Shown: positions 2,624 through 36,181, numbered from the stretch's first letter. The stretch is DNA of 64,000 nucleotides from Escherichia coli (GCF_050920415.1 NZ_CP169309.1), one strand, 5' to 3'. Numbers and translations are program-made. Notes: generated by a model from the letters alone, not told the origin.

Positions 2624-2655
<32 letters not shown>

Positions 2656-3980: not shown

Positions 3981-4006
3981 ATTCAAAAAATACAGAGGAA
4001 TAAGAC

Positions 4007-5128: not shown

Positions 5129-5130
5129 GC

Positions 5131-7798: not shown

Positions 7799-7800
7799 TT

Positions 7801-9237: not shown

Positions 9238-9338
9238 TAGTTGAATAATCAACCGGAATAAATCTCCGGTAAATAATGACAAAAACAAAATTGGCCGTTT
9301 CGGTCAGGGCCAACTATTGCCTGAAAAAGGGTAACGAT

Positions 9339-10709: not shown

Positions 10710-10763
10710 TGTCGGATCTTCCCTTACCCCATTGCGGGTAAGGGGCTAATAACAGGAACAACG

Positions 10764-12158: not shown

Positions 12159-12159
12159 T

Positions 12160-13638: not shown

Positions 13639-13710
13639 ATGGTTGTTTTCGGTTCCGACAACGAACACAACAAACACAGCCTCACCTGGCATCAAATTTA
13701 TGAGGAAAAA

Positions 13711-14991: not shown

Positions 14992-16208
14992 AGGTCGGCT
15001 TCTTCTTATTGAAATTTCCGCTGTCGTCGGAAACCTTCGTTCTCAACCAAATCACTGCGTTTATTGATATGGGCTTTGAGGTGGAGATTGTCGCACTGCA
15101 AAAAGGCGATACGCAAAACACCCACGCGGCATGGACGAAATATAACCTTGCCGCCAGAACTAGCTGGTTACAGGACGAACCACAAGGCAAAGTGGCGAAA
15201 CTGCGCCACCGCGCCAGCCAGACCTTACGCGGCATTCATCGTAAAAATACCTGGCAGGCGCTCAACCTCAAACGCTATAGTGCTGAGTCGCGGAACCTGA
15301 TTTTGTCTGCCATTTGTGGTCAGGTCGCAACACCGTTTCATGCTGATGTGTTTATCGCACATTTTGGCCCTGCGGGGGTAACCGCAGCAAAACTACGGGA
15401 ACTGGGTGTCATTCGCGGCAAAATTGCCACTATCTTCCACGGCATTGATATCTCCAGTCGGGAAGTGCTCAACCATTACACTCCCGAATATCAACAACTG
15501 TTTCGCCGTGGCGATTTGATGCTACCGATTAGCGATCTGTGGGCCGCAAGGCTGCAAAAAATGGGCTGCCCGAGGGAAAAAATTGCCGTATCGCGCATGG
15601 GTGTAGACATGACGCGCTTTAGCCCGCGTCCGGTAAAAGCGCCTGCAACGCCGCTGGAAATCATTTCCGTCGCACGCTTAACCGAGAAAAAAGGCCTGCA
15701 TGTGGCGATCGAAGCCTGCCGTCAGTTGAAAGAGCAGGGCGTGGCATTTCGCTATCGCATCCTCGGCATTGGCCCGTGGGAACGACGCCTGCGCACCCTC
15801 ATCGAACAATATCAACTGGAAGATGTGGTAGAGATGCCGGGCTTTAAACCAAGCCACGAAGTGAAGGCGATGCTCGACGACGCGGATGTCTTCCTGTTGC
15901 CTTCGGTAACGGGTGCTGACGGTGATATGGAAGGTATTCCGGTGGCGCTAATGGAAGCGATGGCAGTCGGTATTCCGGTTGTTTCTACTCTGCATAGCGG
16001 AATTCCGGAACTGGTGGAGGCCGATAAATCCGGCTGGCTGGTGCCTGAGAACGATGCTCGTGCACTGGCGCAACGTCTGGCGGCGTTTAGCCAGCTGGAC
16101 ACCGACGAACTTACTACGGTTGTCAAACGTGCGCGCGAAAAAGTCGAACACGATTTTAACCAGCAGGTGATTAACCGAGAACTCGCCAGCTTGTTGCAGG
16201 CTTTATAG
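14988..16208 (+). CDS. wcaL: Colanic acid biosynthesis glycosyltransferase WcaL (GT4 family)
   Basis: 406-aa ORF; start overlaps the wcaK stop; gene order. Confidence 0.88.
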
Positions 16209-16218
16209 AGGAGAACGC

Positions 16219-17613
16219 ATGCCATTTAAAAAACTCTCCCGACGCACCTTCCTGACGGCAAGCTCGGTGCTTGCCTTCCTCCATACCCCTTTCGCTCGCG
16301 CACTTCCTGCCCGACAAAGCGTCAATATCAACGACTACAATCCACACGACTGGATCGCCTCATTTAAACAAGCCTTCAGCGAAGGGCAAACGGTCGTCGT
16401 GCCTGCCGGATTGGTTTGCGACAATATCAACACTGGCATCTTCATCCCCCCTGGCAAAACGTTACACATCCTGGGAAGCCTGCGCGGCAACGGCAGAGGG
16501 CGATTTGTCTTACAGGACGGCAGCCAGGTGACAGGGGAGAAGGGCGGCAGTATGCATAACATCACCCTGGATGTGCGCGGTTCTGACTGCACCATCAAAG
16601 GGCTGGCGATGAGCGGCTTTGGCCCGGTAACGCAGATTTATATCGGTGGCAAAAACAAACGGGTCATGCGCAACCTGACCATCAATAACCTCACCGTTAG
16701 CCACGCTAACTACGCTATCTTACGCCAGGGATTTCATAACCAGATTATCGGTGCCAACATCACCAACTGTAAGTTCAGCGACTTACAGGGCGACGCCATT
16801 GAATGGAACGTGGCAATTAACGACAGTGATATTTTGATCTCCGACCATGTCATCGAGCGCATCAACTGTACTAACGGCAAAATCAACTGGGGCATTGGCA
16901 TAGGCCTTGCGGGAAGCACTTACGATAATAATTACCCGGAAGATCAGGCAGTGAAAAACTTTGTCGTGGCGAATATCACGGGATCGGATTGTCGGCAGTT
17001 GATACATGTTGAAAATGGTAAACATTTTGTTATTCGTAATATCAAAGCCCGCAATATCACGCCGGATTTCAGTAAGAAAGCAGGCATTGATAACGCCACA
17101 GTCGCTATTTACGGTTGTGACAATTTCGTGATTGATAATATTGAAATGATTAATAGCGCCGGGATGTTAATCGGCTATGGGGTAATTAAAGGCAAATATC
17201 TCTCGATACCGCAAAATTTCCGAGTGAATAATATTCAGCTGGATAACACCTACCTTGCTTACAAATTGCGCGGCATCCAAATCTCTGCCGGGAATGCCGT
17301 CTCCTTTGTGGCACTGACTAACATTGAGATGAAGCGTGCGTCGCTTGAGCTACACAATAAACCGCAACACCTTTTTATGCGAAATATCAATGTGATGCAG
17401 GAATCCTCTGTTGGACCTGCATTGAGCATGAACTTCGACATGCGCAAAGACATTCGTGGCGTCTTTATGGCGAAAAAAGAAACACTGCTGTCTCTTGCAA
17501 ATGTTCATGCGGTGAATGAAAGAGGGCAAAGCTCCGTCGATATCGACAGGATAAATCACCATATTGTTAATGTGGAAAAGATTAACTTTAGATTGCCGGA
17601 ACGGAGGGAGTAG
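16219..17613 (+). CDS. wcaM: Colanic acid biosynthesis protein WcaM (predicted Tat-exported, beta-helix-like)
   Basis: 464-aa ORF; N-terminus [21 protein letters not shown] carries a twin-arginine (RR-x-FLT) signal motif; last gene of the wca operon. Confidence 0.88.
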
Positions 17614-17787
17614 ATTTGCGACCATTCCTGGAAAAATGGAGCCATACTTAGGAACAATGCTACTGCAATCCACAACGAAGCGGCGTAACATCACAAGTAA
17701 TTCAGTAATCAATTCAGGGTAATTGATGCTGGCGAAAAAAATCGAACAAGCTATAATTCAGCAACCATTTTACAGGTGGATGAAATA

Positions 17788-18681
17788 ATGACGAATTTAA
17801 AAGCAGTTATTCCTGTAGCGGGTCTTGGGATGCATATGTTGCCTGCCACTAAGGCGATTCCCAAAGAGATGCTACCGATCGTCGACAAGCCAATGATTCA
17901 GTACATTGTTGACGAGATTGTGGCTGCAGGGATCAAAGAAATCCTCCTGGTAACTCACGCGTCCAAGAACGCGGTCGAAAACCACTTCGACACCTCGTAT
18001 GAATTAGAATCTCTCCTTGAGCAGCGCGTGAAGCGTCAACTGCTGGCGGAAGTTCAGTCCATCTGCCCGCCGGGCGTGACCATTATGAACGTGCGTCAGG
18101 GCGAACCTTTAGGTTTAGGCCACTCCATTTTATGTGCACGACCCGCCATTGGTGACAATCCATTTGTCGTGGTACTGCCAGACGTTGTGATCGACGACGC
18201 GAGTGCCGATCCGCTGCGTTACAACCTTGCTGCCATGATTGCGCGCTTCAATGAAACAGGCCGTAGCCAGGTGCTGGCAAAACGTATGCCGGGTGACCTC
18301 TCTGAATACTCGGTCATCCAGACCAAAGAACCGCTGGATCGCGAAGGTAAAGTCAGCCGCATTGTTGAATTCATCGAAAAACCGGATCAGCCGCAAACAC
18401 TGGACTCAGACATCATGGCCGTTGGTCGCTATGTGCTTTCTGCCGATATTTGGCCGGAACTTGAACGCACTCAGCCTGGTGCATGGGGACGTATTCAACT
18501 GACTGATGCCATCGCTGAACTGGCGAAAAAACAGTCCGTTGATGCCATGCTGATGACAGGTGACAGCTACGACTGCGGTAAAAAAATGGGTTATATGCAG
18601 GCATTTGTGAAGTATGGACTACGCAACCTCAAAGAAGGGGCGAAGTTCCGTAAAGGGATTGAGAAGCTGTTAAGCGAATAA
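17788..18681 (+). CDS. galF: UTP-glucose-1-phosphate uridylyltransferase-like regulatory subunit GalF
   Basis: ATG at 17788 ([39 protein letters not shown]...) gives 297 aa; nucleotidyltransferase fold; marks the 5' flank of the O-antigen locus. Confidence 0.93.
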
Positions 18682-18939
18682 TGAAAATCTGACCGGATGT
18701 AACGGTTGATAAGAAAATTATAACGGCAGTGAAGATTCGTGGCGAAAGTAATTTGTTGCGAATATTCCTGCCGTTGTTTTATATAAACAATCAGAATAAC
18801 AACGAGTTAGCAATAGGATTTTAGTCAAAGTTTTCCAGGATTTTCCTTGTTTCCAGAGCGGATTGGTAAGACAATTAGCGTTTGAATTTTTCGGGTTTAG
18901 CGCGAGTGGGTAACGCTCGTCACATCGTAGGCATGCATG

Positions 18940-18978
18940 CAGTACTCTGGTAGCTGTAAAGCCAGGGGCGGTAGCGTG
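18940..18978 (+). promoter_or_regulatory. JUMPstart element with ops site (GGCGGTAGCGTG) for RfaH-dependent antitermination of the O-antigen operon
   Basis: Exact ops consensus GGCGGTAGCGTG at 18967-18978 within cagtactctggtagctgtaaagccaggggcggtagcgtg, about 75 bp upstream of rmlB. Confidence 0.85.
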
Positions 18979-19052
18979 CATTAATACCTCTATTAATCAA
19001 ATCTGGAGCAGTCTATTTCACAGCATGCTCTCTGGCTATATGGAATAAAAAA

Positions 19053-20138
19053 GTGAAGATACTTGTTACTGGTGGCGCAGGATTTATTGGTTCTGCTGTT
19101 GTTCGTCACATAATAAATAATACGCAAGATAGTGTTGTTAATGTCGATAAATTAACCTACGCCGGAAATCTGGAATCGCTCGCTGAAATTTCTGATTCTG
19201 AACGTTATTCATTTGAGCATGCAGATATCTGTGATGCCGCAGCGATGGCTCGTATTTTTTCACAACACCAGCCAGATGCGGTAATGCACCTGGCGGCTGA
19301 GAGCCACGTTGACCGCTCAATAACTGGTCCGGCGGCATTCATTGAAACTAATATTGTAGGTACTTACGTACTTTTAGAAGCAGCGCGCAATTATTGGTCT
19401 GGTCTGGATGATGAAAAGAAAAAAAACTTTCGCTTTCATCATATTTCTACTGATGAAGTGTATGGTGACTTACCCCATCCGGATGAAGTAAATAGCAATG
19501 AAACATTGCCGTTATTTACGGAAACGACAGCATACGCGCCAAGTAGTCCATATTCTGCTTCTAAAGCGTCAAGCGATCATTTGGTTCGCGCATGGAAACG
19601 TACTTATGGTTTACCGACAATCGTGACTAATTGCTCGAACAACTATGGCCCTTATCATTTCCCGGAAAAGCTTATTCCACTGGTTATTCTTAATGCACTG
19701 GAAGGTAAGGCATTACCTATTTATGGCAAAGGAGATCAAATTCGCGACTGGTTGTATGTAGAGGATCATGCTCGTGCGCTATATACCGTAGTTACTGAAG
19801 GTAAAGCGGGTGAAACCTATAACATTGGCGGACACAACGAAAAGAAAAACATCGATGTTGTGCTGACTATTTGTGATTTGTTGGATGAGATAGTCCCGAA
19901 AGAGAAATCTTATCGTGAGCAAATTACTTATGTTGCTGATCGCCCAGGACACGATCGCCGTTATGCGATTGATGCTGAGAAGATTAGTCGCGAATTGGGT
20001 TGGAAACCACAGGAAACGTTTGAGAGCGGGATTCGGAAGACAGTAGAATGGTACCTGTCCAATACAAAATGGGTTGATAATGTGAAAAGTGGCGCCTATC
20101 AATCGTGGATTGAACAAAACTATGAGGGACGCCAGTAA
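19053..20138 (+). CDS. rmlB: dTDP-glucose 4,6-dehydratase
   Basis: 361-aa [23 protein letters not shown]...; SDR family with YxxxK; first gene after galF. Confidence 0.93.
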
Positions 20139-21037
20139 TGAATATCCTCCTATTCGGCAAAACAGGGCAGGTAGGTTGGGAACTACAGCGTGCTCTGGCA
20201 CCTCTGGGTAATTTGATTGCTCTTGATGTTCACTCCACTGATTATTGTGGTGATTTTAGTAATCCTGAAGGTGTAGCTGAAACCGTAAGAAGCATTCGGC
20301 CTGATATTATTGTCAACGCAGCCGCTCACACCGCAGTTGACAAAGCAGAATCAGAACCGGAGTTTGCACAATTACTTAACGCGACAAGTGTCGAAGCGAT
20401 TGCGAAAGCAGCCAATGAAGTCGGCTCCTGGGTTATTCACTACTCTACTGACTACGTATTTCCGGGAACCGGTGAAATACCATGGCAGGAGGCGGATGCA
20501 ACCGCACCGCTAAATGTTTACGGTGAAACCAAGTTAGCCGGAGAAAAAGCATTACAAGAGCATTGTGTGAAGCACCTTATTTTCCGGACCAGCTGGGTCT
20601 ATGCAGGTAAAGGAAATAACTTCGCCAAAACGATGTTACGTCTGGCAAAAGAGCGTGAAGAATTGGCCGTTATTAACGATCAGTTTGGTGCGCCAACAGG
20701 TGCTGAGCTGCTGGCTGATTGTACAGCACATGCCATTCGTGTCGCACTGAATAAACCAGAAGTCGCAGGCTTGTACCATTTGGTAGCCAGTGGTACCACA
20801 ACCTGGCACGATTATGCTGCGCTGGTTTTTGAAGAGGCGCGCAAAGCAGGCATTCCCCTCGCACTCAACAAACTCAATGCGGTACCAACAACAGCCTATC
20901 CTACACCAGCTCGTCGTCCACATAACTCTCGCCTTAATACAGAAAAATTTCAGCAGAACTTTGCGCTTGTCTTGCCTGACTGGCAGGTTGGCGTGAAACG
21001 CATGCTCAACGAATTATTTACGACTACAGCAATTTAA
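20138..21037 (+). CDS. rmlD: dTDP-4-dehydrorhamnose reductase
   Basis: 299-aa [23 protein letters not shown]...; start overlaps the rmlB stop. Confidence 0.92.
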   Translation: MNILLFGKTGQVGWELQRALAPLGNLIALDVHSTDYCGDFSNPEGVAETVRSIRPDIIVNAAAHTAVDKAESEPEFAQLLNATSVEAIAKAANEVGSWVIHYSTDYVFPGTGEIPWQEADATAPLNVYGETKLAGEKALQEHCVKHLIFRTSWVYAGKGNNFAKTMLRLAKEREELAVINDQFGAPTGAELLADCTAHAIRVALNKPEVAGLYHLVASGTTTWHDYAALVFEEARKAGIPLALNKLNAVPTTAYPTPARRPHNSRLNTEKFQQNFALVLPDWQVGVKRMLNELFTTTAI

Positions 21038-21094
21038 TAGTTTTTGCATCTTGTTCGTGATGGTGGAACAAGATGAATTAAAAGGAATGATGAA

Positions 21095-21970
21095 ATGAAA
21101 ACGCGTAAAGGTATTATTTTAGCAGGTGGTTCTGGTACTCGTCTTTATCCTGTGACTATGGCAGTCAGTAAACAGCTGTTACCTATTTATGATAAACCGA
21201 TGATCTATTACCCGCTCTCTACACTGATGTTGGCGGGTATTCGCGATATTCTAATTATAAGTACGCCACAGGATACTCCTCGTTTTCAACAACTGCTGGG
21301 TGACGGGAGTCAGTGGGGCCTTAATCTTCAGTACAAAGTGCAACCGAGCCCAGATGGTCTTGCGCAGGCATTTATCATCGGTAAAGAGTTTATCGGTAGT
21401 GATGATTGTGCTCTGGTTCTCGGTGATAATATCTTCTACGGTCACGATCTGCCGAAGTTAATGGATGCCGCTGTTAACAAAGAAAGTGGTGCAACGGTAT
21501 TTGCCTATCACGTTAATGATCCTGAACGCTATGGTGTCGTTGAGTTTGACAAAAACGGTACGGCAATTAGCCTGGAAGAAAAACCGCTACAGCCAAAAAG
21601 TAATTATGCGGTAACTGGGCTTTATTTCTATGATAACGACGTTGTAGAAATGGCAAAAAATCTTAAGCCATCTGCCCGAGGTGAACTGGAAATTACCGAT
21701 ATTAATCGTATCTATATGGAACAGGGGCGTTTGTCTGTCGCTATGATGGGGCGTGGTTATGCATGGCTGGATACAGGGACGCATCAAAGCCTTATTGAAG
21801 CAAGTAACTTCATTGCCACCATTGAAGAGCGTCAGGGATTAAAAGTATCTTGCCCGGAAGAGATTGCTTATCGTAAAGGGTTTATTGATGCTGAGCAGGT
21901 AAAAGTATTAGCCGAACCGCTTATCAAGAATCAATATGGTCAATATTTGCTGAAAATGATCAGCGAATAG
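21095..21970 (+). CDS. rmlA: Glucose-1-phosphate thymidylyltransferase
   Basis: 291-aa [24 protein letters not shown]... Confidence 0.93.
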
Positions 21971-21984
21971 TATGTGGGAACTCA

Positions 21985-22398
21985 ATGATGGATATTAAAT
22001 TAATCTCTTTGCAAAAACATGGGGATGAGCGTGGTGCATTAATTGCTCTTGAAGAGCAACGAAATATACCTTTCGAAGTCAAAAGAATATATTACATACT
22101 CGAGACTCTTAAGGGAGTAAGACGCGGATTTCATGCGCACAAGGTTACTCGTCAGTTAGCTATTGTAGTCAAGGGAGCTTGTAAATTTCATCTGGATAAT
22201 GGTAAAGAAACAAAGCAGGTGGAACTTAATGATCCAACAATTGCGTTGCTGATAGAACCCTATATATGGCATGAAATGTATGATTTTAGTGATGATTGTG
22301 TGCTGCTTGTAATTGCGGATGATTTCTATAAAGAGTCTGATTATATACGCAATTATGATGATTTTATTAGAAGAGTAAATTCAATTGAGAATTCATAA
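21985..22398 (+). CDS. fdtA: dTDP-4-keto-6-deoxyglucose 3,4-ketoisomerase (FdtA/QdtA-type cupin)
   Basis: 137-aa ORF; small cupin of the WxcM C-terminal/FdtA type (...RGFHAHK...WHEMYDFS...); sits between rmlA and an acetyltransferase/aminotransferase pair. Galacto- versus gluco-configured product cannot be told by eye. Confidence 0.7.
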
Positions 22399-22852
22399 GC
22401 TAAGTGACGTCCAGACAACATCAATTGGTGATGGAACAACTATCTGGCAGTTTGTTGTAATACTAAAAGGTGCTGTAATTGGTAATAATTGCAACATCTG
22501 TGCAAATACCTTGATTGAAAATAACGTTGTAATTGGTAACAATGTCACAGTCAAAAGCGGTGTGTATATTTGGGATGGCGTTAAAATAGAGGATAATGTT
22601 TTTATTGGTCCTTGTGTAGCATTTACAAATGATAAGTATCCTCGCTCTAAAGTCTATCCTGATGAATTTTTGCACACAATAATACGCAAAGGAGCATCAA
22701 TAGGTGCTAATGCAACCATCCTGCCAGGAATTGAAATTGGTGAAAAAGCAATCGTTGGTGCGGGGAGTGTCGTAACCAAAAATGTACCGCCATGCGCAAT
22801 AGTAGTAGGTAATCCAGCTCGATTTATTAAATGGGTAGAGGATAATGAATAA
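22385..22852 (+). CDS. fdtC: dTDP-3-amino-3,6-dideoxyhexose N-acetyltransferase (hexapeptide-repeat, FdtC-type)
   Basis: 155-aa ORF with left-handed beta-helix repeats ([23 protein letters not shown]...); probable TTG start at 22385 overlapping the fdtA 3' end, start uncertain. Confidence 0.7.
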
Positions 22853-23951
22853 AATTGATTTTTTAGATCTTTTTGCAATTAACCAGCGACAGCACAAAGA
22901 ATTAGTCTCTGCGTTTAGTAGGGTGCTAGATTCTGGTTGGTATATCATGGGCGAAGAACTTGAGCAGTTCGAGAAAGAGTTCGCAGAATACTGTGGAGTT
23001 AAGTATTGCATTGGTGTAGCAAATGGCCTTGATGCGTTGATACTAGTATTGAGGGCATGGAAAGAACTCGGCTATCTAGAAGACGGTGACGAGGTATTAG
23101 TACCGGCAAATACATATATTGCTTCTATTCTTGCTATAACAGAGAACAAACTTGTTCCTGTTCTTGTTGAACCAGATATAGAAACTTATAATATTAATCC
23201 TGCTTTAATTGAAAATTACATTACGGAAAAAACTAAAGCAATATTACCGGTTCACTTATATGGTCTATTGTGCAATATGCCAGAAATTAGTGCAATCGCA
23301 AGAAAATATAATCTGTTGATTCTTGAAGATTGTGCACAAGCACATGGTGCAATACGTGATGGTCGCAAAGCTGGAGCTTGGGGGGATGCTGCAGGATTTA
23401 GTTTTTATCCAGGAAAAAACCTTGGAGCTTTGGGGGATGCGGGAGCTGTTACTACAAATAATGCAGAATTATCCTCAACTATAAAAGCTTTGCGAAATTA
23501 TGGGTCACATAAGAAATATGAAAATATTTATCAGGGATTGAATAGTCGATTGGATGAACTGCAAGCAGCCTTATTGCGTGTAAAAATCCATACATTACCG
23601 GAAGATACTGCGATTCGGCAAAGGATTGCTGAAAAATATATTCGTGAAATAAAAAACCCTGCGATTACGTTACCAGTGTACGAAGGCCAAGGTGCGCACG
23701 TTTGGCATTTATTTGTAGTAAGAATCGCTAATCGTGAAAAATTCCAGTCATACTTATCAGAGAAGGGTATCCAAACCTTAATTCACTATCCATTACCACC
23801 CCATAAGCAGCAAGCATATCAAAATATGTCTAGTCTTAGCCTTCCAATTACTGAGCAAATTCATGATGAAGTCATTTCTTTACCTATAAGTCCGGTAATG
23901 AGTGAAGATGATGTCAATTATGTAATCAAAGTGGTCAATGATTACAAGTAA
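22845..23951 (+). CDS. fdtB: dTDP-3-keto-6-deoxyhexose 3-aminotransferase (DegT/DnrJ/EryC1 family, PLP-dependent)
   Basis: 368-aa ORF of DegT/ArnB aminotransferase type; context with fdtA/fdtC. Confidence 0.78.
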
Positions 23952-25213
23952 TGAAAAAATTTCTTCAGGTAACTATATTATCCGCTATCTATACATTCAT
24001 TAAAATGATTGCGGGTTTTATCATCGGTAAGGTAGTAGCAATTTATACAGGGCCATCAGGGGTAGCAATGCTTGGCCAAGTGCAAAGTTTAATCACAATA
24101 GTTGCAGGTACTACTTCTGCACCTGTAAGCACCGGTCTTGTTCGATATACTGCGGAAAATTGGCAAGAAGGACAGGAAGCATGCGCGCCATGGTGGCGCG
24201 CATGCTTAAGGGTTACTCTGTTTTTATTCTTGCTTATTATTCCCGTTGTTATTTTATTGTCGAAAAATATTAGCGAGTTACTTTTTAGCGATGGACAATA
24301 CACATGGTTAATCATTTTCGCATGTTGTATATTGCCATTCTCCATTTTAAATACATTGATCGCTTCAGTTTTAAATGGTCAACAATTCTATAAGCAATAT
24401 ATATTGGTTGGGATGTTTTCTGTATTCATTTCTACTATGTTTATGATTTTGTTGATTGTAGCTTATAATCTTAAAGGTGCATTGATTGCCACGGCTATAA
24501 ATAGTGCTATTGCTGGTCTTGTATTAGTTTTATTTTGTCTCAATAAATCTTGGTTTAGATTTAAATATTGGTGGGGTAAAACGGATAAAGACAAAATTAT
24601 AAAAATTATTCATTATACTCTGATGGCTTTGGTTTCTGTTATCTCCATGCCTACAGCATTGATGTGTATTAGAAAAATATTGATTGCTAAAACTGGTTGG
24701 GAGGATGCAGGGCAATGGCAGGCCGTATGGAAGATATCTGAGGTCTATCTTGGTGTTGTGACAATTGCTTTGTCAACATATTTCTTACCAAGATTGACAA
24801 TTATAAAAACAAGTTTCCTTATAAAAAAAGAGGTAAATAGTACTATATTATACATAGTATCTATTACTTCATTCATGGCGTTGAGTATCTATTTATTCCG
24901 CGATTTGGTAATAACAGTTTTATTTACTGAACAGTTTCGCTCAGCTCGTGAATTATTTTTGTTACAACTCGTAGGGGATGTAATAAAAATTGCTGGTTTT
25001 CTTTATGCATACCCTCTTCAAAGTCAGGGGCATACTAAACTATTCATCAGTTCAGAAGTGATTTTTTCTATGCTCTTTATCGTTACCACCTATATTTTTG
25101 TTGTAAATTATGGAGTACATGGTGCTAACATAAGTTATGTCATTACATATAGTTTATATTTTGTGTTTGCATTTGTGTTTACTAATTTTATTAATGTCAG
25201 AAGAATTAATTAA
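23951..25213 (+). CDS. wzx: O-antigen flippase Wzx
   Basis: 420-aa, about 12-TM, AT-rich membrane protein immediately after the sugar-nucleotide genes. Confidence 0.8.
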   Translation: MKKFLQVTILSAIYTFIKMIAGFIIGKVVAIYTGPSGVAMLGQVQSLITIVAGTTSAPVSTGLVRYTAENWQEGQEACAPWWRACLRVTLFLFLLIIPVVILLSKNISELLFSDGQYTWLIIFACCILPFSILNTLIASVLNGQQFYKQYILVGMFSVFISTMFMILLIVAYNLKGALIATAINSAIAGLVLVLFCLNKSWFRFKYWWGKTDKDKIIKIIHYTLMALVSVISMPTALMCIRKILIAKTGWEDAGQWQAVWKISEVYLGVVTIALSTYFLPRLTIIKTSFLIKKEVNSTILYIVSITSFMALSIYLFRDLVITVLFTEQFRSARELFLLQLVGDVIKIAGFLYAYPLQSQGHTKLFISSEVIFSMLFIVTTYIFVVNYGVHGANISYVITYSLYFVFAFVFTNFINVRRIN

Positions 25214-25222
25214 AAACAGAGG

Positions 25223-26278
25223 TTGAAATTGAAAATAATTATACCTGTCTTAGGATTTGGCAGGGCTGGTGGTGAAAGAGTTCTTTCTAAGCTGGCAACT
25301 GAATTGATGAATTATGGACATGATGTAAGTTTTGTTGTTCCAGATAATAGAACTAATCCATATTATGCTACCACAGCAAAAATCGTCACGAGTAAATCTA
25401 GTCAAAACCGTGTAAAAATATTGAGAATCATTAAAAATTACTATAATCTGTGGCGTAAATGCATAGAATTAAATCCTGATGCTGTAGTTGCTAGTTTTCA
25501 TTTGACTGCCTATCTTGTCGCATTATTACCAATCACCCGTCGTAAGAAATATTATTATATTCAGGCGTATGAAGTTAATTTTTTTGATAATATAATATGG
25601 AAATTAATAGCGGGTTTAACATATTATTTACCGCTTAAAAAAATACTAAATAGTCCTAATTTGCTTCCTCATAAACATGATGATTTTATAGGAGTAGTTC
25701 CTGCAGGAGTAGATTTAAACGTTTTCTATCCGAAACCATCAAATAGGTTATTAAATGGTCACACATCAATAGGGATTATTGGTAGAAAAGAGAAGCACAA
25801 AGGAACTAGCGAAATTATTTCAGTATTGTGTTCACTGGAAAATAAAGTTGGAATTATAATTAATATTGCGATCTATCTTGAAGAAGTTGATAAGGAGCGT
25901 TTAATTGCTGCCGGGTTTCAGGTTAATTTTTTTCCGATTACTTCTGATTTAGAATTGGCATCTTTTTATCGAAGCAATGACATCATGATTGCAGCTGGGT
26001 TAATTGAAGATGGCGCTTTCCATTATCCTTGTGCTGAATCAATGGCTTGTGGTTGTCTTGTTATTTCAAATTATGCGCCACTTACTGAAACTAACAGTGT
26101 ACTTAAATTAGTCAAGTTTGATGCTTGCAAACTTGGTAAAGCAATTAATCTTTGTCTCAATCTTGACCTAGAAGAAAAAAGCAAAGAAATCCAATCTAAT
26201 ATTTCTGTGTTGAATAAATATGACTGGAAAATTGTTGGTGAAACTTTCAATAGTTTATTGTTAGATGCAAATAAATAG
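25223..26278 (+). CDS. O-antigen glycosyltransferase (GT1/GT4-like)
   Basis: About 350-aa ORF with non-ATG start (TTG at 25223 or 25229; AGAGG RBS at 25217-25221 favours 25229); N-terminus KIIIPVLGFGRAGGERV... typical of GT4-like transferases. Confidence 0.7.
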   Translation: MKLKIIIPVLGFGRAGGERVLSKLATELMNYGHDVSFVVPDNRTNPYYATTAKIVTSKSSQNRVKILRIIKNYYNLWRKCIELNPDAVVASFHLTAYLVALLPITRRKKYYYIQAYEVNFFDNIIWKLIAGLTYYLPLKKILNSPNLLPHKHDDFIGVVPAGVDLNVFYPKPSNRLLNGHTSIGIIGRKEKHKGTSEIISVLCSLENKVGIIINIAIYLEEVDKERLIAAGFQVNFFPITSDLELASFYRSNDIMIAAGLIEDGAFHYPCAESMACGCLVISNYAPLTETNSVLKLVKFDACKLGKAINLCLNLDLEEKSKEIQSNISVLNKYDWKIVGETFNSLLLDANK

Positions 26279-26298
26279 TATACGTTGATGGGGAAAAT

Positions 26299-26856
26299 AT
26301 GAATATTGTTAAAACTGATATTCCAGATCTGATCGTTCTTGAACCAAAAGTGTTTAGTGATGAACGCGGCTTTTTTATGGAGAGTTATAATCAGATTGAA
26401 TTTGAGAAGACAATAGGAAGGCACGTAAATTTTGTTCAGGATAATCATTCAAAATCTAGTAAAGGCGTACTACGTGGGTTACATTATCAATTAGCACCGT
26501 ATGCACAGGCTAAATTAGTTCGATGTGTTGTAGGTCAGGTATTTGATGTTGCTGTTGATCTTAGAAAAAATTCACCAACGTTCAAAAAATGGTTTGGAAT
26601 AACCCTTTCCGCAGAAAATAAACGACAATTATGGATACCTGAAGGATTTGCTCATGGTTTCTTGGTGACCAGTGATGAAGCTGAGTTCATTTATAAAACA
26701 ACGAACTACTATGCTCCTGGTCATCAGCAAGCAATTATTTACAATGATCCTATTTTAAACATCGATTGGCCTTTCTGCAGTAGTGCTCTGTCATTATCGC
26801 AAAAAGATCAAGAAGCAAAATTATTTTCAGAATTATTGGACAGTGAACTGTTCTAA
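26299..26856 (+). CDS. rmlC: dTDP-4-dehydrorhamnose 3,5-epimerase
   Basis: 185-aa ORF MNIVKTDIPDLIVLEPKVFSDERGFFMESYN...; canonical RmlC cupin; separated from rmlBDA. Confidence 0.92.
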   Translation: MNIVKTDIPDLIVLEPKVFSDERGFFMESYNQIEFEKTIGRHVNFVQDNHSKSSKGVLRGLHYQLAPYAQAKLVRCVVGQVFDVAVDLRKNSPTFKKWFGITLSAENKRQLWIPEGFAHGFLVTSDEAEFIYKTTNYYAPGHQQAIIYNDPILNIDWPFCSSALSLSQKDQEAKLFSELLDSELF

Positions 26857-26923
26857 TAAAGTGTGCCACCTTATCCGTCTGAAGGATAGGTGGTTGCTTA
26901 TATTTTTTGAGTATGTTTGTATA

Positions 26924-27886
26924 ATGACAGAAAATAGTCCGAAATATAAACACGATAAAAGCTTAATAAGTTTTATCTACTTATTTTTTATATTTACACT
27001 TATTGTAGGCTTCATTATCGCAAATACCCAGTTTTTGGGGCGAAGTAGAGACTATGATAATTATATACAGATCTTTTCTGGTGAAGAAGGGGAGGGGGTT
27101 CTTGAATTATTTTATCGCGGATTGATGTTAATAACGACCAGCTATGAAATTATCATTTTTATAATTTTAACATGTTCTTTTTTTATAAAGGCAAGGTTTC
27201 TTGCTAACTATTCGCGTAATTTTTCAGGCTTGACCTTATTCTTTGTTTATTATGCAAGCGTTGCACTTTGGGTTTTAGATTATACTCAATTCAGAAATGG
27301 TCTATGTATTTCCATTTTAATGTTTTCCGTATACTATTTATTTATAAATAAACCGACTTATTTTTATTTCTCGCTATTATGTGCAATTGCAACTCATTGG
27401 TCTGCTTTGCCTTTTTTGCTTTTATATCCTTTTGTCTATTCAAAAAAAATAAGACACCTTGGTTATTTTTGTTTCAGTATTCTTGTTTTGATTGCGATCT
27501 CAGGAGAAGGAAAAGAGATCATTTCTTTTATAAGAAATTTTGGAGTGGGACAAAAAATAGGAAACGAAGCTGGTGTAAATTTAATAAATTCATTATCCCT
27601 TACCGCTATTTTCTGGTTTGTTATTAGTTACATATCAAGCATTGGAAATGAAAGGAGAAATTTAAGACTTTTCTTTTGTTATGGTGTCATGCAATACGTG
27701 ACTTTTAGCCTTTTCTCTCTACCTGTTATGGCTTTCCGTATTTTGGAAATGTATTTTTTCCTTATGTTAACCATTGGGGTGTTTATTAAGCAAAAAAAGA
27801 ATTATTATTTTGTTTTTTGCAAAGTGTTAATTTTATTGTATCTAACATACTATTATCATATGGTTTTTGGAGTGATTAATGTGTAA
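26924..27886 (+). CDS. wzy: O-antigen polymerase Wzy
   Basis: Listed ORF starts at 26783; ATG at 26924 (MTENSPKYKHDKSLISFIYLFF...) gives about 320 aa; very AT-rich, multi-TM, with a large predicted loop. Confidence 0.7.
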   Translation: MTENSPKYKHDKSLISFIYLFFIFTLIVGFIIANTQFLGRSRDYDNYIQIFSGEEGEGVLELFYRGLMLITTSYEIIIFIILTCSFFIKARFLANYSRNFSGLTLFFVYYASVALWVLDYTQFRNGLCISILMFSVYYLFINKPTYFYFSLLCAIATHWSALPFLLLYPFVYSKKIRHLGYFCFSILVLIAISGEGKEIISFIRNFGVGQKIGNEAGVNLINSLSLTAIFWFVISYISSIGNERRNLRLFFCYGVMQYVTFSLFSLPVMAFRILEMYFFLMLTIGVFIKQKKNYYFVFCKVLILLYLTYYYHMVFGVINV

Positions 27887-28766
27887 GGCTAAGGTGTTGG
27901 CTATAATTGTTACTTACAACCCGGAAATTATTCGTTTGACGGAATGTATTAACTCTTTAGCCCCACAAGTTGAGAGAATAATTCTTGTAGATAATGGCTC
28001 AAATAATAGTCATTTGATAAAAAATATCATTATTAATAACCTTGAAATTATTTTGCTTTCGGAAAACAAAGGCATTGCATTTGCTCAGAACCATTGTGTT
28101 AAGAAGGGTCTGGAAGCAAAAGAGTTTGACTATTTATTTTTCTCAGATCAGGATACTTGCTTTCCTAGCGATGTTATTGAAAAACTTAAGAGTACATTTA
28201 CGAAAAATAATAAAAAAGGTAAAAATGTTGCTTGTGCTTCTCCTTTTTTTAAAGACCATCGTTCAAATTATATGCATCCGTCAGTCAGCCTAAATATTTT
28301 TACGAGTACAAAAGTTATATGTAGTGAAGTAGACGATGATCTTTATCCCTCGCATGTTATTGCTTCTGGGATGTTAATGTCTCGCGAGGCATGGCGCGTC
28401 GTCGGACCATTTTGTGAAAAACTCTTTATAGACTGGGTTGATACAGAATGGTGTTGGCGTGCATTAGCTAATAGTATGATTATTGTTCAGACACCATCAG
28501 TCATCATTTCTCATGAACTTGGGTATGGGCAGAAAATTTTTGCTGGTCGATCTGTTACAATACATAATTCTTTCAGAAATTTTTATAAAATACGTAATGC
28601 AATATACTTAATGCTGCATTCAAATTATAGCTTCAAGTATCGTTATCATGCTTTTTTTCATGCGACAAAGAATATTGTATTTGAAATTTTATATTCGAAA
28701 GAAAAATTAAATTCACTGAAGGTTTGTTTTAAAGCTGTACGTGATGGTATGTTCAATAATTTTTAA
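27879..28766 (+). CDS. O-antigen glycosyltransferase, GT2 family (probable rhamnosyltransferase)
   Basis: 295-aa ORF; N-terminus LAIIVTYNPE...VDNGSNNS and a DxD-like region (FFSDQDT) typical of GT2. Confidence 0.72.
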   Translation: MCKAKVLAIIVTYNPEIIRLTECINSLAPQVERIILVDNGSNNSHLIKNIIINNLEIILLSENKGIAFAQNHCVKKGLEAKEFDYLFFSDQDTCFPSDVIEKLKSTFTKNNKKGKNVACASPFFKDHRSNYMHPSVSLNIFTSTKVICSEVDDDLYPSHVIASGMLMSREAWRVVGPFCEKLFIDWVDTEWCWRALANSMIIVQTPSVIISHELGYGQKIFAGRSVTIHNSFRNFYKIRNAIYLMLHSNYSFKYRYHAFFHATKNIVFEILYSKEKLNSLKVCFKAVRDGMFNNF

Positions 28767-28796
28767 TACAAAAATAGTTAGGCTCAAGGTGTTTAA

Positions 28797-29873
28797 ATGG
28801 AAGAAAATAATATGAAGACGGTCGCTGTAGTTGGCACAGTGGGTGTTCCTGCTTGTTATGGTGGGTTTGAATCACTTGTTCAGAATCTAATTGATTATCA
28901 ATCTGATGGTATACAATATCAGATATTTTGCTCTTCAAAAAAATATAATAAAAAATTAAAAAATTATAAAAATGCAGAATTAATCTATTTGCCGATAAAT
29001 GCCAATGGCGTCTCTAGCATAATTTATGACATTATGTGTTTAATTATTTGTTTATTCAAAAGGCCAGATGTTGTTTTAATATTGGGGGTATCTGGTTGTT
29101 TATTTCTACCAATTTATAAACTATTTTCAAAATCAAAGATCATTGTCAACATCGATGGGCTTGAATGGCGTAGAAATAAATGGGGAACGTTTGCTAAGAA
29201 ATTTCTCAAAATATCTGAGGCGATATCTATTAGAATAGCTGATATTATCATTTCAGATAATCAAGCAATAGCTGATTATGTGGAAAATAAGTACAATAAA
29301 AAAAGCGTAGTTATAGCTTATGGGGGAGATCATGCTACTAATCTTAGTACACCGATAGACGATGATCAAAAAAAAGATGGTTATTATTTGGGGCTTTGTA
29401 GGATAGAGCCTGAGAATAATATAGAAATGATTTTGAATGCCTTCATTAATACAGATAAAAAAATTAAATTTATGGGTAATTGGGATAATAGCGAGTATGG
29501 GCGCCAGCTAAAAAAATATTATTCAAACTATCCAAATATCACACTACTAGAACCTAACTATAATATCGAAGAACTTTATAAACTAAGAAAAAATTGCCTT
29601 GCATACATTCATGGACACTCGGCTGGTGGAACAAACCCTTCTTTAGTTGAAGCGATGCATTTTAATATTCCTATTTTTGCTTTCGATTGTGACTTTAATC
29701 GTTACACAACTAATAATTTAGCTCATTACTTTAATGATTCTGAACAACTGACCTCATTAGCAGACAGTTTGTCTTTTGGAAATCTTAAATGTCAAGTATT
29801 AGATTTAAAAAAATATGCTGAAGATATGTATAACTGGAGGCATATAGCTGCTATGTATGAATCTATTTATTAA
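28797..29873 (+). CDS. O-antigen glycosyltransferase (GT1-like)
   Basis: 358-aa ORF (alternative start MKTVAVVG at 28812); GT1-like C-terminal motifs; last gene of the O-unit block. Confidence 0.68.
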   Translation: MEENNMKTVAVVGTVGVPACYGGFESLVQNLIDYQSDGIQYQIFCSSKKYNKKLKNYKNAELIYLPINANGVSSIIYDIMCLIICLFKRPDVVLILGVSGCLFLPIYKLFSKSKIIVNIDGLEWRRNKWGTFAKKFLKISEAISIRIADIIISDNQAIADYVENKYNKKSVVIAYGGDHATNLSTPIDDDQKKDGYYLGLCRIEPENNIEMILNAFINTDKKIKFMGNWDNSEYGRQLKKYYSNYPNITLLEPNYNIEELYKLRKNCLAYIHGHSAGGTNPSLVEAMHFNIPIFAFDCDFNRYTTNNLAHYFNDSEQLTSLADSLSFGNLKCQVLDLKKYAEDMYNWRHIAAMYESIY

Positions 29874-30039
29874 ACGCATTAACAATAATATAATTGACCT
29901 TATATAGCTATCAGAGTAAAAATGTAACGCTGATTTTTTTGTTAAATGATGCGCATTATATATTTAATGATTAAAATACTCTTGATCAAATAAAACTATT
30001 TAATTAATAATGTAAAATTTCATTATGCTATTTAAGATG

Positions 30040-30108
30040 TGAAAAATAACTTAAATAAATGATGGGATATATTTATATTATCCCGGTTATAGACAAGCCC
30101 AGGGAAAG
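30040..30108 (+). repeat. Degenerate duplicate of the 5' end of the H-repeat (ISAs1) transposase gene
   Basis: 30057-30108 (aaatgatgggatatatttatattatcccggttatagacaagcccagggaaag) is about 85% identical to 30257-30308 inside the transposase ORF; the ATG equivalent is mutated. Confidence 0.6.
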
Positions 30109-30244
30109 ATCATCAGAAGTACACTTTTTGTACTAAATAATTCGCATTTTATGTTTAAAAATATGAGATATTCCTCATTACCTGAAGCTGTTTTTTATTG
30201 CTTATACATGATCAAATACTCCTTACATAATTAAGGAGAACAAA

Positions 30245-31381
30245 ATGGAACTTAAAAAATTGATGGAACATATTTCTATTATCCCCGATTACAGACAAGC
30301 CTGGAAAGTGGAACATAAATTATCGGATATTCTACTGTTGACTATTTGTGCCGTCATTTCTGGTGCAGAAGGCTGGGAAGATATAGAGGATTTTGGAGAA
30401 ACACATCTCGATTTTTTGAAGCAATATGGTGATTTTGAAAATGGTATTCCTGTTCACGATACCATTGCCAGAGTTGTATCCTGTATCAGTCCTGCAAAAT
30501 TTCACGAGTGCTTTATTAACTGGATGCGAGATTGCCATACTTCAGATGATAAAGACGTCATCGCAATTGATGGAAAAACACTCCGGCATTCTTATGACAA
30601 GAGTCGCCGTAAGGGAGCGATTCATGTCATTAGTGCGTTCTCAACAATGCACAGTCTGGTCATCGGACAGATCAAGACGGATGAGAAATCCAATGAGATT
30701 ACAGCCATCCCTGAACTTCTTAACATGTTGGATATTAAAGGGAAAATTATCACAACTGATGCGATGGGTTGCCAGAAAGATATTGCAGAGAAGATACAAA
30801 AACAGGGAGGTGATTATTTATTCGCTGTAAAAGGAAATCAGCGTCGGCTTAATAAAGCCTTTGAAGAAAAATTCCCACTGAAAGAATTAAATAATCCAGA
30901 GCATGACAGTTATGCAATTAGTGAAAAGAGTCACGGCAGAGAAGATATCCGTCTTCATATTGTTTGCGATGACCCTGATGAACTTATTGATTTCACGTTT
31001 GAATGGAAAGGACTGAAAAAATTATGCGTGGCAGTCTCCTTTCGCTCAATAATAGCAGAGCAAAAGAAAGAGCCCGAAATGATGGTCAGATATTATATCA
31101 GTTCTGCTGATTTAACCGCTGAGAAGTTTGCGACAGCGATTTGAAATCACTGGCACGTGGAGAATAAGCTGCACTGGCGTCTGGACGTGGTAATGAATGA
31201 AGACGATTGTAAAATAAGAAGAGGAAATGCAGCAGAATTATTTTCTGGGATACGGCACATTGCTATTAATATTTTGACGAATGATAAGGTATTCAAGACA
31301 GGATTAAGACGTAAGATGCGAAAAGCAGCCATGGACAGAAACTATCTCGCGTCAGTCCTTGCGGGGAGCGGGCTTTACTAG
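30245..31381 (+). mobile_element. ISAs1-family (H-repeat-associated) transposase gene interrupted by a single in-frame TGA (pseudogene)
   Basis: 299-aa ORF (30245-31144) and 74-aa ORF (31157-31381) are in the same frame, separated only by TGA at 31142-31144; the combined about 378-aa product has the ISAs1 motif ...[21 protein letters not shown]... with the stop at a conserved Arg position. Confidence 0.8.
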
Positions 31382-31453
31382 TCCTTCCTCGCTCAGTGAC
31401 AGAATATTGAATGAATAGCATTAAAATTATTAAATAATATGGTTTAATTCGAC

Positions 31454-33081
31454 ATGAACTTTAAGAATATAATTAGAATAATACTACCTTTTTTTATTTT
31501 CTTGAGTATTTTACTTTACTCAGGAAGGGCGGATAGTGTTTTGTTATTTACTATCGAATACACACTTGCAAGTATGGCAATCTTTCTGATAAAAAGAAAG
31601 TTTATAAGCAATATCTTGTGGGGGATTTATCTCTCAATTTTAGGTGTACAGGCAGCATCGCTATTTAGTTCAGGACAATATTTGATGCCTCTTGCCTTGT
31701 CGAATGCTGCAGAAGTTGAATCGCTAGGCATTGGCGAGGTAATCAAGGTTTTTTCTATTTTTATTTTATTTGTTATAGTTTCATTCGTTACGATGCCTTC
31801 TGGTGCTCTAGTCGGCCGTATTAAATATTATAAATTTAATTTTTTCTGTATAGTATTATTGCTTGTGTGTTCTTTCATAAGCACGGGACCGGTATATGCT
31901 TTTTATGAAACAGCAAAATTGTACTATTTACAGCAAACCTTTAAGCCTAGTGAGAAGATCGGTGATGCCGGGAAATCTTTTTTAAAAACAAGTGTTTTTA
32001 TTAACCCTCTACAGAATAACAACAACTTCAAAGGGCGTAATGTTATTGTAATCTTTGCTGAGGGATTTTCATCGGAGATTATTGGTAATTCAAAAATGGC
32101 GCATTTTCCAATTACGCCTAATTTAGATAAGTTATCTACTGAAGCACTAAGTTTTAAAAATTATTATAACCATACAGCAGTAACCTTTCGAGGTTTAAGA
32201 GGCCAGTTAACTTCTGGCTATCAATTTCGTGATGGGTTAACTGATGCTGGTACTGGTATTGCACAATTATCTAACGTAGAAATTAATAATATTTATCTTC
32301 ATCGTCAAACATCTTTGCCGAATATATTGAAAGAGTATGGCTATAAAAGTTATTTTATAGCGTCTACAGAAAAAATAGCCCACTCAACACTATGTTGAAA
32401 ACGCTTAATTTTGATAAAGTTCTTGGTATGGGAGATTTTATTGGTTATCAACGCGACAGAATGACTGATAAGCAAACATTTAATGCACTGCAATATTTTT
32501 TACGTTCTCAAGAAAATAAAAACGAACGCTTTTTTATTGGTGTGTACCCATCTGGTACTCATCATGGTCAAGATAGTCCAAATGAAAAATATTTTGATGG
32601 TAGCAATCCTCTCTACAATAAATTCTATAACTATGATTTTCAGTTGGGGAAGTTTGTTGATTTTTTTCGGCGCAGTTCATTTTATGGCAATACGTTGTTG
32701 ATAATTACATCGGATCATTCTACATTTCCTTCGACAGAATATAAGAAATCATTTAACAGCGATTCTCGTTATTTTGTGGACAAAATACCATTTCTGATCA
32801 TTGGGAAAAATATTACGCCTGAAGTTTTAGATGCAGGAGGTGAAAATTCTTTAAGTTTCGCGCCAACAATATTGCACATGTTAGGGATTCAGTATTCAAT
32901 GAATTATTTTTTGGGGTGTTCTCTTTTTGATAAGACGTGCACATCACCATTCTCACATCTTTCTGCTATTGGTAGTGATTATTTCAATACAGGCAAAGAA
33001 AATCATGTTGAACTAATTCAAAATAATAGTGGTAATGAATTAATAAAATTAGCCGAACGTTTTTATAACATTAGTGGCTAA
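31454..33081 (+). pseudogene. Sulfatase/alkaline-phosphatase-superfamily membrane enzyme (LtaS/phosphoglycerol- or phosphoethanolamine-transferase-like), frameshifted
   Basis: 314-aa ORF (31454-32398) has N-terminal TM helices then a sulfatase-like domain (NVIVIFAEGFSSE...); the domain continues in another frame as a 229-aa ORF (32392-33081; ...LLIITSDHSTFPS...); frame change lies near an A6 run at 32370-32375. Confidence 0.6.
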
Positions 33082-33215
33082 ATATAAAAATGTACAAGTT
33101 ACAAGCAATTTCCTAATTAGGAAATATATGACTGTAAAAGAAGATATAAATTAAGCTATTCTTTATCTTCAATAAGCCGCAACCCCGCGGTGATCACCCC
33201 TGACAGGAGTAAACA

Positions 33216-34622
33216 ATGTCAAAGCAACAGATTGGCGTAGTCGGTATGGCAGTGATGGGGCGCAACCTTGCGCTCAACATCGAAAGCCGTGGTTATACCG
33301 TCTCTATTTTCAACCGTTCCCGTGAGAAGACGGAAGAAGTGATTGCCGAAAATCCAGGCAAAAAACTGGTTCCTTACTATACGGTGAAAGAGTTTGTTGA
33401 ATCTCTGGAAACGCCTCGTCGCATCCTGTTAATGGTGAAAGCAGGTGCAGGCACGGATGCTGCTATTGATTCCCTCAAGCCATACCTCGATAAAGGTGAC
33501 ATCATCATTGATGGTGGTAATACCTTCTTCCAGGACACCATTCGTCGTAACCGTGAGCTTTCTGCCGAAGGCTTTAACTTTATCGGTACCGGTGTCTCCG
33601 GTGGTGAAGAAGGTGCGCTGAAAGGTCCTTCCATTATGCCTGGTGGCCAGAAAGAAGCCTATGAACTGGTTGCACCGATCCTGACCAAAATCGCCGCCGT
33701 TGCTGAAGACGGCGAGCCATGCGTTACCTATATTGGTGCCGATGGTGCTGGCCACTATGTGAAGATGGTTCATAACGGTATTGAATACGGCGATATGCAG
33801 CTGATTGCTGAAGCCTATTCACTGCTTAAAGGTGGCCTGAGCCTCACCAACGAAGAACTGGCTCAGACCTTTACCGAGTGGAATAACGGTGAACTAAGCA
33901 GCTACCTGATCGACATCACCAAAGATATCTTCACCAAAAAAGATGAAGACGGTAACTACCTGGTTGATGTGATTTTGGATGAAGCAGCAAACAAAGGTAC
34001 AGGCAAATGGACCAGCCAGAGTGCGCTAGATCTCGGCGAACCGCTGTCGCTGATTACCGAGTCTGTGTTTGCACGTTATATCTCTTCTCTGAAAGATCAG
34101 CGTGTTGCCGCATCTAAAGTTCTCTCTGGCCCGCAAGGACAGCCAGCAGGCGACAAGGCTGAGTTCATCGAAAAAGTTCGCCGTGCGCTGTATCTTGGCA
34201 AAATCGTTTCTTACGCTCAGGGCTTCTCTCAGCTGCGTGCTGCGTCTGAAGAGTACAACTGGGATCTGAACTACGGCGAAATCGCGAAGATTTTCCGTGC
34301 TGGCTGCATCATTCGTGCGCAGTTCCTGCAGAAAATCACCGATGCTTATGCCGAAAATCCGCAGATCGCTAACCTGTTGCTGGCTCCTTACTTCAAGCAA
34401 ATTGCCGATGACTACCAGCAGGCGCTGCGTGATGTCGTTGCTTATGCAGTACAAAATGGTATCCCGGTTCCGACCTTCGCTGCTGCGGTTGCCTATTATG
34501 ATAGCTACCGTGCCGCTGTTTTGCCTGCGAACCTGATCCAGGCACAGCGTGACTATTTCGGTGCGCATACTTATAAGCGCATTGATAAAGAAGGTGTGTT
34601 CCATACCGAATGGCTGGATTAA
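33216..34622 (+). CDS. gnd: 6-phosphogluconate dehydrogenase, decarboxylating
   Basis: 468-aa [33 protein letters not shown]...; canonical Gnd; 3' flank of the O-antigen locus. Confidence 0.97.
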
Positions 34623-36035: not shown

Positions 36036-36181
36036 CATCCTGTTATCAGGGCGATTTTCGCCCTGATTCTCTCATGTTCCCTTTGTAATAATTCATTATT
36101 TTTATCATTTATCCTATAGCATTCATGGCGATTATCGCTAAACTATGGCGACTTAAAATTATTTCGTCCGTTAGGGTAATG

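Follow-up and report, generated by a model that had tools for sequence, protein, structure and literature searches.

An O-antigen gene cluster of probable serogroup O2, with apparently exchanged rmlB, rmlD and rmlA genes, in an Escherichia coli chromosomal window

Gene Content and Layout

An O-antigen gene cluster lying between galF and gnd was analyzed in a 64,000-nucleotide (nt) stretch of Escherichia coli DNA (the window), whose positions are used as coordinates throughout. Twelve intact, co-oriented open reading frames (ORF) occupied positions 19053-29873 without notable gaps, at the coordinates given in a preliminary description of the same DNA. They followed galF in the order rmlB-rmlD-rmlA-fdtA-fdtC-fdtB-wzx-GT4-rmlC-wzy-GT2-DUF1972/GT (GT, glycosyltransferase), which is the location and order of the O2/O50 cluster. 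The feature was very probably a Wzx/Wzy-dependent O-antigen cluster of serogroup O2 (O2/O50 family), functionally complete and with the O2-type allele of fdtB. The preliminary description had named these twelve genes between galF and gnd, and they were found as named, but three further ORF were present between 29873 and gnd (33216). The end of the cluster, which that description had placed at 29873, was moved about 3.2 kb downstream, to gnd, the added part holding an ISAs1 transposase pseudogene and wekS. All cluster genes were on the + strand, and the features were as follows.

17788-18681: galF, 5' flank of the cluster
18967-18978, + strand: ops element GGCGGTAGCGTG (exact motif, located by script), part of a JUMPstart-like sequence between galF and rmlB, upstream of the operon
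19053-20138, + strand: rmlB (rfbB), dTDP-glucose 4,6-dehydratase, non-O2-type allele
20138-21037, + strand: rmlD (rfbD), dTDP-4-dehydrorhamnose reductase, non-O2-type allele
21095-21970, + strand: rmlA (rfbA), glucose-1-phosphate thymidylyltransferase, holding the apparent 5' recombination breakpoint (about 21727-21970)
21985-22398, + strand: fdtA, dTDP-6-deoxy-3,4-keto-hexulose isomerase (cupin), 137 amino acids (aa), NCBI start 21988
22385-22852, + strand: fdtC, hexapeptide-repeat N-acetyltransferase for dTDP-3-amino-3,6-dideoxyhexose, intact, 155 aa, TTG start
22845-23951, + strand: fdtB, pyridoxal phosphate-dependent sugar 3-aminotransferase (DegT-type), codon 137 CAC at 23253-23255
23951-25213, + strand: wzx, O-unit flippase, O2/O50 family
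25223-26278, + strand: GT4-family glycosyltransferase, first after wzx (NCBI 'glycosyltransferase family 4 protein', start 25229)
26299-26856, + strand: rmlC (rfbC), dTDP-4-dehydrorhamnose 3,5-epimerase
26924-27886, + strand: wzy, O-antigen polymerase, O2/O50 family
27879-28766, + strand: putative GT2-family rhamnosyltransferase
28797-29873, + strand: DUF1972 plus Glycos_transf_1 glycosyltransferase
30245-31381, + strand: ISAs1-family (H-repeat) transposase pseudogene, internal stop at codon 300
31454-33081, + strand: wekS, membrane LTA-synthase/sulfatase-family gene, frameshifted into ORF 31454-32398 and 32392-33081
33216-34622, + strand: gnd, 3' boundary gene (NF006765, 772 bits), with the apparent 3' recombination breakpoint at its start
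36125-37159, + strand: wzzB, O-antigen chain-length regulator, outside the cluster (NF012015, 610 bits)

The coordinates agreed with the NCBI annotation of the cluster of strain N96, which differed from the window by 4 single-nucleotide polymorphisms (SNP), and the layout was identical in annotated O2 genomes. The G+C fraction fell from about 0.45 in rmlB, rmlD and rmlA to 0.30-0.37 from fdtA to the last transferase, and a drop of this kind is the usual signature of O-antigen clusters. From established knowledge, the ops element would have a role in RfaH-dependent antitermination; the O2/O50 reference alignment in the printed Table S4 of Delannoy 2017 begins with this same sequence.

Serogroup Assignment

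A megablast search of positions 19053-33216 (14.2 kb) against 5426 complete E. coli genomes gave 131 with the stretch in full, and in these NCBI calls wzx and wzy 'O2/O50 family'. Typed strains among the 131 included C 237-04 (O2:K2:H1) and strains of types O2:H6 and O2:K1:H5. Near-identical relatives were limited to two of the complete genomes, those of N96, from a Tibetan pig, and of a food isolate. Each gene from fdtA to the DUF1972 transferase was 99.2-100% identical to its counterpart in C 237-04 (wzx 99.5%, wzy 99.4%), and with the same gene content and order this bore out the O2-like match that had been proposed from the gene order. The best matches of wzx and wzy were to O2/O50 alleles, of a serogroup with L-rhamnose (Rha) and 3-acetamido-3,6-dideoxy-D-galactose (Fuc3NAc), so that the test by which these two genes might have overturned the proposal left it standing. 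The first 996 nt of wzx differed from the O2/O50 type-strain sequence at 14 positions. The specific genes were at least 99% identical to those of O2, on which ground a novel serogroup was rejected.

With more than 99% identity, the O2 and O50 clusters are not separable by gene order, wzx or wzy (PMC7685785; Delannoy 2017), and the Liu et al. review (PMC7685785) ascribes the missing Fuc3NAc branch of O50 to replacement of a His by Arg in FdtB. Type-strain reference sequence (3040 nt, covering the end of rmlA, fdtA, fdtC, fdtB and most of wzx) was transcribed from the printed alignment in Table S4 of Delannoy 2017, of which parts 1, 3 and 4 of 11 were used. Within these parts, positions 21907-24946 of the window were 98.95% identical to the O50 type strain U18-41, and the O2 references G1674 and EU549863 differed from U18-41 at the diagnostic base only. 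Column 4308 of the alignment, in fdtB, alone separated the two O50 sequences (CGC) from the two O2 sequences (CAC) there; a second discriminating SNP is mentioned by Delannoy 2017. Codon 137 of the window fdtB (23253-23255) was CAC, encoding His137, and the cluster was therefore of the O2 type and not of the O50 type. The five best solved homologues all keep this histidine, as part of a VHLYG/VHLFG motif. When an 81-mer with the O50 base was searched for, each of the 131 genomes matched it with one mismatch and none matched it exactly, so the O50 allele was absent from the complete-genome set. Expression of the O antigen in this strain is predicted from the sequence.

Synthesis of dTDP-Fuc3NAc

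The three enzymes of a dTDP-D-Fuc3NAc pathway were present and intact: a cupin with its histidine pair, a DegT-type aminotransferase and a hexapeptide N-acetyltransferase. FdtA matched FdtA of Aneurinibacillus thermoaerophilus (PDB 2PA7; E = 5e-42, 146 bits) and QdtA (4ZU7; E = 2.6e-37, 131 bits), and retained the GFHAHK histidine pair in the alignment; its gene was 100% identical to that of C 237-04. FdtC (residues 3-154) aligned to the acetyltransferase domain of 4MZU, a bifunctional WxcM-like protein, at residues 2-153 of that domain (E = 7e-71), and also matched 7S43 and the QdtC structure 3FS8. FdtB matched 5U1Z (E = 2e-142) and the QdtB structure 3FRK (E = 1e-119). The fdt-like ORF thus fell in the FdtA/QdtA, FdtC-type acetyltransferase and FdtB/QdtB families, a result that could have gone against the earlier proposal and instead agreed with it.

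Either dTDP-Fuc3NAc or the dTDP derivative of 3-acetamido-3,6-dideoxy-D-glucose (Qui3NAc) had been proposed from these three families, and both products were compatible with the matches, Fuc3NAc being favored through the identity with O2. The match to FdtA was only slightly above that to QdtA, and the galacto configuration is therefore taken from the established structure of O2; identity with that chemically characterized serogroup, rather than the sequence by itself, assigns the sugar as Fuc3NAc.

In all O2 genomes inspected (6333-6779 in locus L001, 6406-6780 in L002, 4906-5280 in both L003 and L004, and 10172-10618 in L005), the NCBI pipeline split fdtC into two pseudogene fragments labelled 'incomplete'. 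A defective fdtC, as in that annotation, was rejected. Since the ORF was intact and aligned from end to end with the solved 4MZU domain, the pseudogene label seems to be a systematic annotation artefact and not gene decay.

Rhamnose Genes and Mosaic Structure

All four Rml enzymes exceeded the NCBIfam equivalog or subfamily cut-offs: RmlB (NF007490, 795 bits, cut-off 649), RmlD (NF007440, 656 bits, cut-off 308), RmlA (NF012024, 671 bits, cut-off 588) and RmlC (TIGR01221, 263 bits, cut-off 156). The dTDP-L-rhamnose pathway was thus complete, as had been expected from the rml genes.

RmlC was identical in protein sequence to the C 237-04 copy, whereas identity to C 237-04 was 94.4% for rmlB, 89.4% for rmlD and 91.1% for rmlA. 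Differences from O2 strains were dense up to position 21727, in rmlA, missing from the rest of that gene and nearly absent from there to 33233, at the start of gnd, which points to one sharp recombination breakpoint within the 3' end of rmlA and another where gnd begins. Apart from those of the two near-identical genomes, the closest rmlBDA allele (98.6%) belonged to a different O cluster with wecB, in strain Z0117EC0005. The cluster copy therefore appears to be a mosaic in which rmlB, rmlD and rmlA came by recombination from another rhamnose-containing serogroup. O clusters are well known to exchange the shared rml genes at their 5' ends. The genes rmlB, rmlD and rmlA are of a housekeeping type, serving a pathway, and their exchange should leave the O unit unchanged.

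Transferases and Assembly of the O Unit

Wzx had family-level similarity to WzxE (196 bits), and Wzy was a membrane protein of the Pfam EpsG family (E = 1e-17). The genes wzx, wzy and wzzB were present and the ABC transporter genes wzm and wzt were not among the cluster ORF, as is typical of Wzx/Wzy-dependent assembly. The GT4 transferase had the Pfam domains Glyco_transf_4 and Glycos_transf_1; the NCBIfam search returned no family for it or for Wzy. The GT2 transferase had the Pfam domain Glycos_transf_2 and scored 179 bits, below the cut-off of 200.6, with the 'rhamnosyltransferase' family TIGR01556. The last transferase matched Pfam DUF1972 (E = 7.5e-32) and had full-length similarity to the Cps2T beta-1,4-rhamnosyltransferase family (201 bits, below the cut-off of 500).

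Two of these genes were interrupted in other O2 genomes: wzy was frameshifted in C 237-04 (10874-11835 of locus L002), and the GT2 transferase was split into two ORF in the avian pathogenic strain APEC IMT5155 (15668-16497 of locus L005). These breaks were either assembly errors or truly defective O-antigen genes.

The O2 repeat unit has a mass of 828.34 Da, given as three Rha, one N-acetylglucosamine (GlcNAc) and one Fuc3NAc (PMC8969423); the literature text searched did not give the exact O2 linkages and confirmed the composition by mass only. Four glycosidic bonds would follow the GlcNAc-phosphate placed by WecA, versus three encoded transferases. The Liu et al. review (PMC7685785) counts O2 and O50 among the clusters in which a single transferase 'is probably responsible' for a pair of different Rha-Rha linkages. 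The earlier count of three transferases for four linkages held, and the bifunctional enzyme then suggested as one way out turned out to have been published, as a proposal rather than a demonstration.

The intermediate made by RmlA and RmlB, dTDP-4-keto-6-deoxy-D-glucose, is the branch point to dTDP-L-Rha and dTDP-D-Fuc3NAc. In the mechanism proposed, RmlA and RmlB would produce this intermediate, RmlC and RmlD would turn it into dTDP-L-rhamnose, and FdtA (3,4-ketoisomerase), FdtB (aminotransferase) and FdtC (N-acetyltransferase) would turn it into dTDP-D-Fuc3NAc. GlcNAc-diphosphate-undecaprenol, supplied by the unlinked WecA, would serve as the acceptor, on which the three transferases would assemble a unit of five sugars (three Rha, the GlcNAc and a side branch of Fuc3NAc), with one rhamnosyltransferase acting twice. 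The first L-Rha would be added to the acceptor by the Cps2T-like DUF1972 enzyme, two alpha-L-Rha residues, probably in two linkages, by the inverting GT2 enzyme, and alpha-D-Fuc3NAc by the retaining GT4 enzyme, whose gene adjoins wzx. The unit would then be flipped by Wzx and polymerized by Wzy, with the chain length set by WzzB.

The 3' End of the Cluster

Compared with MS1657, where the ISAs1 transposase (NF033564, 332 bits) is intact, codon 300 of the window copy was a stop instead of Arg; the N96 copy is annotated with an 'internal stop'. The segment holding it and the preceding spacer (29874-31400) was about 96-97.5% identical to other O2 strains, versus more than 99% for the flanking genes, and had an indel of 6-7 bp near 30094-30099. 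Gene conversion with other ISAs1 copies may explain this divergence.

The gene name wekS is that of Delannoy 2017; a literature search on wekP, wekQ, wekR and wekS returned unrelated matches only, and the names wekP, wekQ and wekR were left unconfirmed. In MS1657 wekS was intact (542 aa), its protein matching Pfam Sulfatase (E = 3e-26) and having weak similarity to phosphoglycerol transferase I, the nearest named family. The window copy had lost one A from a run of seven (A7), and the resulting A6 (about 32364-32369) caused the frameshift into two ORF; it did not keep the intact ORF with membrane segment and sulfatase-type domain that characterizes the LTA-synthase/phosphoglycerol-transferase family. 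Among complete genomes, A7 was found in at least 56 (42 exact matches plus about 14 with one SNP) and A6 in seven, which were scattered across unrelated strains, some of them close relatives of A7 strains. C 237-04 (O2:K2:H1) had the same frameshift as the window. A homologue about 90% identical was present in seven genomes of other serogroups, and divergent homologues of this kind were likewise intact (A7). In about 60 O2-cluster genomes, or about half, the wekS segment was missing or degraded, as in APEC IMT5155, from which wekS was argued to be dispensable. By comparison with these sequences, the 3' accessory part of the cluster (the ISAs1 transposase and wekS) appears to have decayed in the window copy.

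That WekS is a working periplasmic phosphoglycerol or phosphoethanolamine transferase, adding a labile, unreported substituent to the O2 antigen or to another envelope glycan and switched on and off by slippage in A7, with the window in the 'off' state (A6), was thought unlikely, although the scatter of A6 among strains that mostly have A7 would be compatible with it. An assembly error in the homopolymer and simple decay would be equally possible accounts of A6. We know of no phosphate substituent in the O2 structure, and the repeat-unit mass given in PMC8969423 leaves no room for one.

Comparison With Known Systems

The O2 cluster (G1674, GU299792; EU549863; genomes of C 237-04 and NC101) had the same locus, twelve genes, gene order, downstream ISAs1 and wekS, and FdtB His137 as the window. 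It differed in that rmlB, rmlD and most of rmlA were of another allele in the window (89-94%), in the ISAs1 stop of the window, and in the wekS frameshift, which was found in some but not most O2 genomes. The O50 cluster (U18-41, KY115227 / AB811624) has Arg137 (CGC) and no Fuc3NAc branch, unlike the window with His137 (CAC).

The Fdt pathway of A. thermoaerophilus and the related Qdt pathway (2PA7, 3FRK, 3FS8, 4MZU) use the same three enzyme families, whose genes directly followed rmlA in the window; the histidine pair of FdtA and the VHLYG motif of the aminotransferase were common to the solved enzymes and the window proteins. The window FdtC, at 155 aa, was of a short type that resembles the N-terminal domain of the bifunctional Shewanella enzyme 4MZU rather than the longer QdtC.

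As described in PMC9705854, the O2-related cluster of EPEC080 has its first nine genes in the same order (rmlBDA, fdtACB, wzx, GT4 and rmlC), but each gene has less than 90% DNA identity to O2/O50 and the cluster carries manB and manC, whereas the window held a true member of the O2/O50 family.

Alternative Explanations

Several points weighed against a functionally complete O2 cluster. Over the 3 kb compared, the window diverged by about 1% from the type-strain reference, FdtB had S305, Q310 and V363 relative to that reference, and the GT2 transferase had four amino-acid changes from C 237-04, with changes also in Wzx and other proteins. For wzy, the three transferases and rmlC the comparison was with O2 genome sequences and not with the printed reference. 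Transferase specificities could be assigned by inference only, because the GT2 and Cps2T-family scores were below the curated cut-offs; the exact O2 linkages are those reportedly given by Jansson et al. in 1987; and the O2 assignment is a prediction from gene sequence.

The O50 form, in which the same cluster with an inactive FdtB would yield a linear Rha3-GlcNAc without the Fuc3NAc branch, would fit the three FdtB substitutions and also the gene order, wzx and wzy, which do not distinguish it from O2. However, His137Arg (CAC to CGC), the only change reported as the cause, was absent from the window, and CGC was found in none of the 131 complete genomes. Q310 was apparently common to O2:K2:H1; at position 305, the one compared directly with sequenced O2 genomes, both of these genomes had L305, like the reference. 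The O50 form was thus extremely unlikely. The chance that the amino sugar is instead D-Qui3NAc (gluco configuration), with an isomerase that is QdtA rather than FdtA, was likewise extremely low: the isomerase scored nearly as high with QdtA as with FdtA (131 and 146 bits), the aminotransferase strongly matched QdtB, and the configuration at C4 is not fixed by sequence alone, but the isomerase protein was identical to that of O2 strains and the cluster was about 99% identical to O2, whose polysaccharide is reported with D-Fuc3NAc (PMC7685785, PMC8969423).

An antigenically distinct O2 sub-variant, arising from the mosaic structure and the divergence of about 1% through altered transferase or polymerase specificity or through loss of a WekS-dependent modification, was very unlikely. 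The exact configuration of the window was found in only two of the 131 genomes, amino-acid differences occurred in the GT2, GT4 and DUF1972 transferases and in Wzy, and wekS was frameshifted in the window but intact in most genomes carrying it. The divergent part, however, was rmlB, rmlD and rmlA, pathway genes whose exchange should leave the structure unchanged, and the specific genes were 99.2-100% identical to those of typed O2 strains, including the O2:K2:H1 strain with the same wekS frameshift; moreover, the cited O2 repeat-unit mass counts no phosphate. Serogroup O2 with an active FdtB remained by far the most probable assignment.

Other Features of the Window

The rest of the window was ordinary chromosome, with the colanic acid (wca) cluster at 1-19000 and ugd, wzzB, the his operon, yeeZ to sbmC and cobUST at 34600-64000. 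The window was colinear with N96 but lacked its insertion sequences (IS) IS621 and IS66. The gene ldtA (L,D-transpeptidase) was cut short at 243 aa by insertion of an IS3-family element of 1308 bp (57643-58950), which is absent from N96, has terminal inverted repeats TGAACCGCCCCGG... and holds its transposase ORF at 58021-58908. Relative to N96, the window also had a 132-bp insertion at 2531-2662, around the wcaD-wcaE junction (sequence …AATCCCCAGGAGCGTACACGAGTACGTGACTGGGGTGAGCG…), which we take to resemble an enterobacterial repetitive intergenic consensus (ERIC) element.

Significance

The cluster, its sugar pathways, the difference between O2 and O50 and the shortage of transferases are all already in the literature, and the window provides one more copy. 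The cluster has reportedly been described by Iguchi and coworkers in 2015 and by DebRoy and coworkers in 2016. Descriptions of the O2 cluster by Li 2010 and Fratamico 2010 are cited in Delannoy 2017, and the relationship between O2 and O50 is attributed to Yang 2018 in PMC7685785.

The NCBI pipeline appears systematically to mislabel the intact fdtC of the O2 cluster as a pseudogene. Serogroup O2 is common among extraintestinal and avian pathogenic E. coli and is a component of candidate O-antigen conjugate vaccines, and typing a strain as O2 and not as O50 helps epidemiology. FdtB codon 137 separates the two, which gene order or wzx and wzy typing cannot do. The rmlB, rmlD and rmlA genes of an O cluster appear to be exchangeable without a change of serogroup.

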